A DNA stretch of 64,000 nt from Eledone cirrhosa (taxonomy: Eukaryota): the NCBI GenBank assembly GCA_964016885.1, contig OZ024740.1, positions 372,682,001 through 372,746,000 on the forward strand, read 5' to 3'. Every line of letters begins with the position of its first letter. The first letter of the stretch is position 1. Shown here piece after piece: positions 25,171 through 26,015 of this stretch. The notes below the pieces were generated by a model. The model saw nothing but the letters and a program-made list of their open reading frames with translations. It ran no database searches and had not been told where the DNA came from. The position numbers and the translations under genes are program-made.

Positions 25171-25240
25171 TCCCCCTCCGCCTTTTGGGATTCTTTCTCA
25201 CGTCGTGTAGACGCGTTCTTGAGACTAGTAAAATGAGGTA

Positions 25241-25330
25241 TCCTCTTGATAAGTCGGCAGACCTCGCAGGGACTCTATATCTTTATGATGTATTGTTTTT
25301 GTTTATGCCACGAAACTACGTAGTCGAGGA
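25241..25330 (+). ncRNA. Type I hammerhead ribozyme, U3-A8 core variant
   Basis: Stem I TCCTC/GAGGA, core TTGATAA, stem II GT(C)GGCA...TGCCAC with a large loop, GAAA, palindromic stem III ACTACGTAGT, GUC cleavage after 25325. Confidence 0.75.
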
Positions 25331-25833
25331 ATCTAGGAGCAGTTTAGGTATGATACATTTTATTACTAATTATATCTAAATGTTTCTACTCTCTTCATAA
25401 TGTATTTTTAACTCTGATACTGGTTCAGTCTAGTTCAACCGGATTGGTCTGTCCCAGTCATTCATTGAACAACATCGGTGAAGTTGGCACCCTTAACTCA
25501 CGGTTGGGTGCGGATGCATTCATGTATATGTGTGTGTCCGCATGTATCTGTGTGTTTCTAAATATATTGTTAATAACTCCCTCTGGTCGAGCAATCTTTG
25601 AAGTGTGGGGACTGCTGGAAAGCTTCCATTACTCATACTTCTCGCCTCCTTCACCACATCTTCTACGGCTTCGATATAAATGCCCCCTCCGCCTCCGTGG
25701 TATTTTCTTCGGGGTTATAAGAGGCTTAGCTCTGTTTCTCGACCGTTATATCGCGTGACTATCTCCCCCTCCGCCTTTTGGGATTCTTTCTCACGTCGTG
25801 TAGACGCGTTCTTGAGACTAGTAAAATGAGGTA

Positions 25834-25923
25834 TCCTCTTGATAAGTCGGCAGACCTCGCAGGGACTCTATATCTTTATGATGTATTGTTTTTCTTTATG
25901 CCACGAAACTACATAGTCGAGGA
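25834..25923 (+). ncRNA. Second copy of the U3-A8 hammerhead
   Basis: Same motif, except stem III reads ACTACATAGT (CpG decay). Predicted cleavage after 25918. Confidence 0.7.
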
Positions 25924-26015
25924 ATCTAGGAGCAGTTTAGGTATGATACATTTTATTACTAATTATATCTAAATGTTTCTTCTCTCTTCATAATGTATAT
26001 ATATATATATGTATA

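Follow-up and report, generated by a model that had tools for sequence, protein, structure and literature searches.

Animal non-LTR retrozymes, as described in the text of Cervera and de la Pena (2020, PMC7229834) and of Li, Clavereau and Pollet (2026, 10.64898/2026.07.22.740005), are tandem non-coding units with one type I hammerhead ribozyme each; they are low in GC, reach thousands of copies and coexist with Penelope-like elements (PLEs), by which they are proposed to be mobilised. Retrozyme circles have been demonstrated in mussel, coral and axolotl (PMC7229834), and the mobilisation of retrozymes by PLEs from such circles is a published hypothesis without direct proof (PMC7229834, 10.64898/2026.07.22.740005). 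The LTR retrozymes of plants (PMC4918200), as summarised in the 2026 preprint (10.64898/2026.07.22.740005), combine type III hammerheads with true LTRs, PBS/PPT and 4-bp TSDs, and use Gypsy helpers. As for PLEs, their reported insertion pattern comprises an inverted arm and a tail at one end (PMC8557442, PMC3846280), and two internal reverse transcriptase (RT) start sites account for the tail in vitro (PMC11167929).

In this study we focus on a retrozyme locus in a 64-kb window, the window being the whole stretch of DNA that was analysed. The features of the locus are as follows.

25171 to 25997, plus strand: whole insertion, bordered on either side by TA/CA microsatellite; it is a 1.4-mer, truncated at its 5' end, of a non-coding unit of 593 nt.
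25241 to 25330, plus strand: hammerhead 1, type I, predicted cut after 25325.
25326 to 25396, plus strand: predicted hairpin just 5' of site A, fold z = -4.3 (sister family z = -3.9), repeated after hammerhead 2.
25326 to 25918, plus strand: predicted cut-to-cut monomer of 593 nt, a putative circle, placed from the hammerhead positions.
25495 to 25556, plus strand: predicted hairpin just 5' of site B, fold z = -5.3 (sister family z = -6.1).
25567 to 25573, plus strand: site B, which lies about 245 nt 3' of the cut and about 165 nt 3' of A; the window copy has no end here.
25577 to 25592, plus strand: CTCC-N4-9-GTYGAGY motif, 4-10 nt after B, common to the 5' regions of Hydra-clade PLEs.
25683 to 25694, plus strand: first of two identical C-rich boxes, the second lying at 25764-25778 and 25171-25185; both are kept in the sister family.
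25834 to 25923, plus strand: hammerhead 2, type I, altered by G>C at 25894 and by G>A at 25913; cleavage is predicted after 25918.
25996 to 25998, plus strand: site A, the fixed 3' end, located 79 nt beyond the cut; its counterpart in the first repeat is at 25404.

The locus had been noticed in a preliminary description for its near-identical terminal repeats of about 235 bp with one hammerhead each, and both observations are borne out: direct repeats of 235 bp at 25171-25405 and 25764-25998, spaced by 593, differ by three mismatches (25301/25894, 25320/25913 and 25388/25981), and a hammerhead is found in both. The word terminal holds less well. The direct repeats are real, but they are not LTR-like, as only the 3' end is fixed and they represent the overlap of a 1.4-mer; they appear as terminal repeats because the arm of the window copy, putatively primed at A, ran about 826 nt. 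Being a 5'-truncated 1.4-mer, the locus belongs with the tandem non-LTR retrozymes of animals and not with the LTR retrozymes of plants. An LTR-retrozyme reading was rejected on two grounds, namely 5' ends that are spread over the unit and a hammerhead of type I.

The 358-bp middle of the locus is non-coding by every test run, in agreement with the earlier remark that it holds no credible ORF. It has a frame of 134 codons from stop to stop and one of 78 codons from an ATG; the 134-codon frame has no Pfam match, the 593-nt unit has no match to the PLE proteins of the 64-kb window (best E 8.6), and the sister family, 75% identical to the unit, contains no ATG frame of at least 50 codons. The GC content of the unit, read from sequence composition, is below 45%. 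The C-rich boxes are possible promoter elements. The flanks are (TA)n, in which a TSD cannot be read. An inverted-repeat element of about 100 bp is seen beside the TA tract at 24340-24440, and TA tracts at several other loci are flanked by similar sequence.

Hammerhead 1 is composed of helix I (25241-45/25326-30), the core (25246-52), the helix II region (25253-311) and a palindrome (25315-24). In both hammerheads helix I has 5 bp (TCCTC/GAGGA) and the core, TTGATAA at 25246 and 25839, has U3-A8 instead of C3-G8; the ribozyme is completed by a helix II region of 59 nt, GAAA, a helix III with the 10-nt palindrome ACTACGTAGT, and GUC. The 3-8 pair, G10.1-C11.1, GAAA, a UH cut site and three helices, as expected of a type I hammerhead, are thus all present. 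U3-A8 is a natural covariation that is active in vitro (PMC3088659), and this natural, in vitro active core is also reported in PLE hammerheads (PMC4209133). A hammerhead descriptor run on the 64-kb window returned three matches, the two hammerheads described here and one at 48596-48626, while 30 dinucleotide shuffles gave 0-2 loose matches and none under a stricter setting, which in the window was met by hammerhead 1 alone. It also confirmed the positions of the GUC cuts predicted earlier, after 25325 and 25918 and 593 nt apart. The match at 48596-48626, on the minus strand, is a canonical type I hammerhead with a CUGAUGA core, a 7-bp helix I and a palindromic helix III. Rfam detected neither hammerhead of the locus at its gathering score or at E<=10, probably because of the core variant and the long helix II. 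In a comparison of 11 sequences with the sister family, pairing is retained in 94% of the pair cells, mostly by way of G-U/A-U changes, and slid pairings reach 33-58%. Covariation in these 11 sequences does not rise above that of shuffles; the alignment therefore agrees with the fold without proving it. One copy of the sister family (L102-L115) has a both-sided change in helix I.

Folding predictions suggest how the ribozyme may be controlled. Two copies of hammerhead 1 co-fold through the palindrome into a dimeric ribozyme at -61.7 kcal/mol, compared with 2 x -24.0 kcal/mol for the separate copies. In the full 826-nt fold, the probability of helix I is near 0; helix I is left unformed in the folded full transcript and in the circle because the hairpin before A takes its 3' strand. 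This hairpin is therefore a predicted off-switch, which would limit cutting to a short transcription window or to the dimer. The predicted 593-nt monomer, folded as a circle, gives z = -4.4 against 100 shuffles. In hammerhead 2, a pair of helix II is lost through G>C at 25894 and the palindrome is interrupted by G>A at 25913; its monomer is predicted to fold without helix III, and the mixed dimer is predicted to be weaker. In the first mapped unit, all 76-77 insertions counted have G at the equivalents of 25894 and 25913, the latter position lying within the 19-mer used to pick many of the loci. By prediction the two substitutions weaken hammerhead 2, so that even if the family produces a monomer, this particular locus may supply little of it.

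The copy number in the genome, a check that the preliminary description had called for, is high: in 3.0 Gb there are 7,634 exact matches of the hammerhead 19-mer and 7,123 complete hammerhead core patterns (controls 0 for each), both counts taking in sister subfamilies. The 593-nt unit was mapped on loci L001-L100, of which 21 overlapping or duplicate loci were dropped and 79 kept, the window included; these 79 consist of 27 best matches, 47 loci in chromosome order and 5 chosen as long arrays. The mapping ignored matches below 88% identity or shorter than 30 nt, and L094 gave no arm for that reason. Copies are fractions and multiples of the 593-nt unit, with single arms of up to 2.9 kb, and form tandem and head-to-head arrays inside (TA)n at dispersed insertions. 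Related sequence occurs in public contigs of 4 sequencing runs, from organisms A, B and C, and is uninformative on expression. The sister retrozyme family (L102-L115), 75% identical, of similar unit length and with the same hammerhead core, has A/B ends about 160 nt apart and 1,830 first-look candidates. A further retrozyme group (L180-L209) has units of 316-324 nt and short-helix U3-A8 hammerheads in which helix II covaries; it gives 4,834 pattern matches against 39 in controls. Its insertions lie in TA, are tandem and two-armed, and have a tail roughly 35 nt long.

The ends of the copies are strikingly regular. Among the 121 arms of the 79 non-redundant loci, 59 end at A, 54 at B and 8 elsewhere, and (TA)3 adjoins 108 of the 112 uncut A/B ends; the 5' ends of the same arms are spread over the whole unit. 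Site B also appears as a loose-end site in public contigs. Head-to-head insertions, 41 in number, pair A with B in 35 cases, are scored A+A in one and have one unclassified end in five. As scored, 35 of 36 corresponds to a binomial P of 1e-9; in the lone insertion scored A+A, the arm continues to B in a more diverged subfamily, so that it reads A+B as well, giving 36/36 classifiable insertions. The position-ordered loci alone (n=47) yield 19 A+B, 1 scored A+A and 4 unclassified. The sister-family insertion L115, which ends B+B, is an exception to this pairing. The same two-armed insertion was seen at L055 and L058 (C1, 19.62 Mb), 2.55 kb apart, apparently by local duplication.

Partial tandems, an inverted 5' arm, a tail at one end and 5' truncation, all of them seen here, make up the footprint of a PLE. 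The insertion ends are the Penelope 'tail' footprint, and copying by a Penelope-type enzyme is likely. Given this footprint and the two internal starts that explain the tail in vitro, we infer that A and B are RT starts. The earlier proposal of a young non-autonomous element mobilised in trans by a PLE RT is supported in part: the element is young, non-coding, non-autonomous and high in copy number and shows a Penelope-type footprint, with a PLE RT as its likely mobiliser.

It is very improbable that the family has no RNA step of its own and is instead a satellite-like repeat shaped at the DNA level by unequal crossing over and conversion, or a set of stubs of a coding PLE. Some variants are common to adjacent units only, which indicates that local duplication or conversion may add to the arrays, but the insertions do not fit this reading: they are dispersed, flanked by TA and include inverted arms, and their 3' ends are fixed while their 5' ends fall at random. 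This end distribution largely refutes the DNA-level reading. As to stubs, no coding body was found: in the mapped loci the unit continues as further units or stops in TA and never ran into an ORF-length body, and searches with Pfam, in the fetched mapped loci and against the PLE proteins of the window found no RT or GIY-YIG coding in or upstream of the repeat. The possibility, raised at the outset, that the locus is only the truncated 3' end of a coding PLE has therefore failed.

The predicted cut site leaves no trace in the copies. No indel occurs in any of the 183 read-throughs of this site, and 5' ends are not concentrated near it (2/121 observed, 4.3 expected), so the template was continuous across the cut site. 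Furthermore, units resemble each other most within an insertion, the divergence being 0.57% within an arm, 0.60% between arms and 2.8% between insertions; within versus between insertions of one subfamily, it is 0.88/1.51, 0.14/1.27 and 0.74/1.50%. Both arms belong to the same subfamily in 26/26 typed two-armed insertions, and 1/59 insertions was scored as mixed, this one from a fragment with 5 sites. Variants unique to one insertion, that is, unique within a sample of 79 loci out of thousands, occur in all overlapping units (33), in one unit (129) or in some units only (14). The 33 shared ones come from 21/65 insertions; 22 of them span both arms, and 8 come from a single diverged locus, L063. 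At 83 non-CpG sites variable within an insertion, the minor letter is shared with other insertions; this sharing and the partial unique variants may reflect recurrent mutation, conversion or inherited multimer variation. Continuity across the cut site and the one-unit bottleneck together fit a circular template, without proving it, and from these sequence patterns we hold a circle to be about twice as probable as a linear template. The possibility that conversion can homogenise arrays weakens this preference.

The linear alternative keeps the PLE and changes the template, which would be an uncut linear multimer, or a monomer re-read by precise jumps; the hammerhead would trim transcripts or be protein-assisted, and circles would be incidental or absent. 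We regard it as unlikely, though several facts speak for it. With the anole PLE in vitro, hammerhead cutting is reported as unneeded for insertion and uncut RNA as the main template (PMC11167929), folding predicts that helix I is occupied in the full transcript, shared variation within insertions exists, autonomous PLEs are described to make partial tandems too (PMC8557442), and indel-free read-through is equally expected from an uncut multimer. Nevertheless, a linear multimer passes on unit differences and can only shorten, while young arrays need a one-unit bottleneck: those of up to 8 units differ by 0.1% inside and by >1% from the nearest full-length neighbour sampled (L092). Template jumps at the cut end should moreover leave indels or stops, and none were seen there. 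Of the Xenopus retrozyme dimers, 8/9 are reported not to cut in vitro (10.64898/2026.07.22.740005).

The helper was looked for among the PLEs of the same genome; several families of the Hydra clade, whose members are reported to target (TA)n (PMC8557442), were sampled without regard to family. The window itself contains an intact young Hydra-clade PLE (51207-56410, minus strand) with an 870-codon frame at 53734-56346, whose protein displays DKT, RWR and CxCX5C, the Hydra signature, and has no match in Pfam. Its 3' region of about 2.5 kb has internal tandem repeats, it has a canonical short hammerhead (core about 51291, cut about 51260), and it ends in TA at about 51207 with an A-type end, a short inverted B-type arm being found at its 5' end. 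Many near-intact copies of this family exist; its arms have two ends 104 nt apart (7/12 and 5/12), and the hairpin before its A-type end folds no better than shuffles. This family was rejected as the sequence parent of the retrozyme, its hammerhead being a different one with short helices. Elsewhere in the genome, Hydra hammerheads have helix II regions of 47-93 nt, which standard descriptors would miss, mostly palindromic helix III, and in one case a U3-A8 core. In one Hydra family (L167:480-840, minus strand; L219) a hammerhead-like core reads CCGAAGA (U4C), with an 81-nt helix II.

The unit and the Hydra PLEs are linked by the motif that follows B. CTCC-N4-9-(G/A)TYGAG is present before the start codon in 11/11 Hydra 5' regions examined; in those loci where the inverted-arm end is visible, it follows this end at a distance of up to about 12 nt. 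Genome-wide, motif plus start codon gives 538 matches against 7 in controls, and a Hydra RT lies downstream in 28 of the first 30 of these 538. Shuffles of the unit contain the motif anywhere in 15/5,000 cases and at its place after B in 1/5,000, figures that are optimistic since the pattern was written after the likeness had been noticed by eye. The sister retrozyme family has the motif only in degenerate form. Beyond the 16-nt motif and the architecture, no extended similarity of the unit to any sampled Hydra family was found: in BLASTN comparisons with 30 + 30 + 30 Hydra loci, all matches of the unit were short or fell in microsatellites, and pairwise alignments reaching z of up to 6 rest on AT-rich or pyrimidine-rich tracts or on the motif and do not denote homology. 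A search for a parent with the same helix III palindrome and a helix II of 4-34 nt gave 4 matches, apparently deletion variants of both retrozyme families; one with a CUGANGA core and a 35-65-nt spacer gave 0 genome matches; and the unit's own B motif with a start codon gave a single match that reads as a retrozyme variant. The autonomous PLE sharing the repeat, for which the preliminary description advised a search, was accordingly not found among the families sampled.

TA targeting, the shape of the ribozyme and the motif after B point to a helper of the Hydra clade, and the assignment, which we infer from sequence features, is to the clade and not to a family. A helper from another clade (Neptune, Naiad or Penelope/Poseidon), with a Hydra-like motif that is coincidental, appears improbable. 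Naiads are also reported to target (TA)n (PMC8557442), the window holds a second, decayed PLE of another type (6929-8222, plus strand) with RVT_1 and weak GIY-YIG matches in two frames, and no direct Hydra parent was found, Hydra being the only clade sampled in depth. Against it, the motif right after B matches Hydra B ends, tail length and long-helix-II hammerheads match Hydra families of this genome, and Naiads are described as being without canonical hammerheads (PMC8557442).

Taken together, our results are best explained by a non-LTR retrozyme in which monomers, likely cut by the predicted hammerheads and likely circularised, are likely copied into TA microsatellites by a borrowed RT/endonuclease of a Hydra-clade PLE, a reading that we consider probable. 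A transcript spanning two hammerheads would be cut, the dimeric fold that forms through the helix III palindrome being the most likely route, and the monomer would be ligated, after which the hairpin following the cut would block helix I. The helper would nick both strands of (TA)n and its RT would start at A on one and at B on the other, each start site lying just after a hairpin. Each RT would then continue beyond the former cut site over a distance that varies and reaches about five rounds at most, and the two cDNAs would be joined head to head, or one arm would be lost. A more specific version, twin rolling-circle target-primed reverse transcription (TPRT), is put forward tentatively as possible and somewhat short of an even chance: a protein dimer of a Hydra-clade PLE would grip the two hairpin-marked sites of one circular RNA, prime at A and B on opposite strands, and both RTs would roll round the same circle. 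If true, it would explain the head-to-head insertions and the one-sided tail of PLEs in one step, and would make the 593-nt unit a minimal substrate with which multimeric DNA could be inserted into TA repeats.

Judged by its sequence, the family is an animal non-LTR retrozyme, for which circles and cleavage are predicted. Its 593-nt unit is longer than the circles of 170-400 nt shown in 2020 (PMC7229834), and falls within the range of 51-972 bp given in the 2026 survey (10.64898/2026.07.22.740005). It differs from the animal retrozymes described in its U3-A8 core, its 59-nt helix II and a circle predicted to block its own ribozyme, the self-blocking circle being reported as typical of plant retrozymes and viroids rather than of most animal retrozymes (PMC7229834). 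The available text of the animal retrozyme papers (PMC7229834, 10.64898/2026.07.22.740005) describes neither fixed A/B ends nor TA targeting. Likewise, we found no mention of the Hydra motif, of a one-unit bottleneck or of a count of A+B pairs in the available text of the retrozyme and PLE papers, and no such element among the listed titles and abstract openings of the octopus hammerhead-ribozyme literature. The family could already be listed in the tables of the 2026 preprint or in Repbase-type libraries.

With the Hydra-clade PLEs (Craig et al. 2021, PMC8557442) the retrozyme shares, as far as their published description goes, (TA)n targets, a hammerhead, partial tandems, an inverted 5' arm and a one-end tail, and with those of this genome also a long helix II, a mostly palindromic helix III and the motif after B; in contrast to them, it has no ORF and no extended similarity to any sampled family. 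Its tail of about 165 nt compares with 30-40 bp quoted for PLEs (PMC8557442) and with 104 nt in the Hydra family of the window. The Poseidon PLE of anole, as reported in vitro (Frangieh et al. 2024, PMC11167929), is similar in having two internal RT starts that bracket the tail, in cutting and extending both DNA strands, in its AT-rich targets and in a predicted dimer. It differs in belonging to another clade, in being autonomous and in showing no difference in start site between the strands, whereas the two-armed insertions of the retrozyme pair A with B. Plant LTR retrozymes also have two hammerheads flanking a non-coding monomer of similar size (10.64898/2026.07.22.740005), unlike which the present element has a type I hammerhead, variable 5' ends and a PLE footprint.

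The class itself is thus known, and the family is useful as a clean test system within it. It provides two named start sites, a rule of A-with-B pairing and candidate recognition elements. It also comes with a candidate helper clade, whose intact ORFs are found in this very genome, and with a predicted switch by which the circle would be protected against renewed self-cleavage. Since the family is young, abundant and clean-ended, the hypothesis published for animal retrozymes, mobilisation by PLEs from circles, becomes a set of defined tests.
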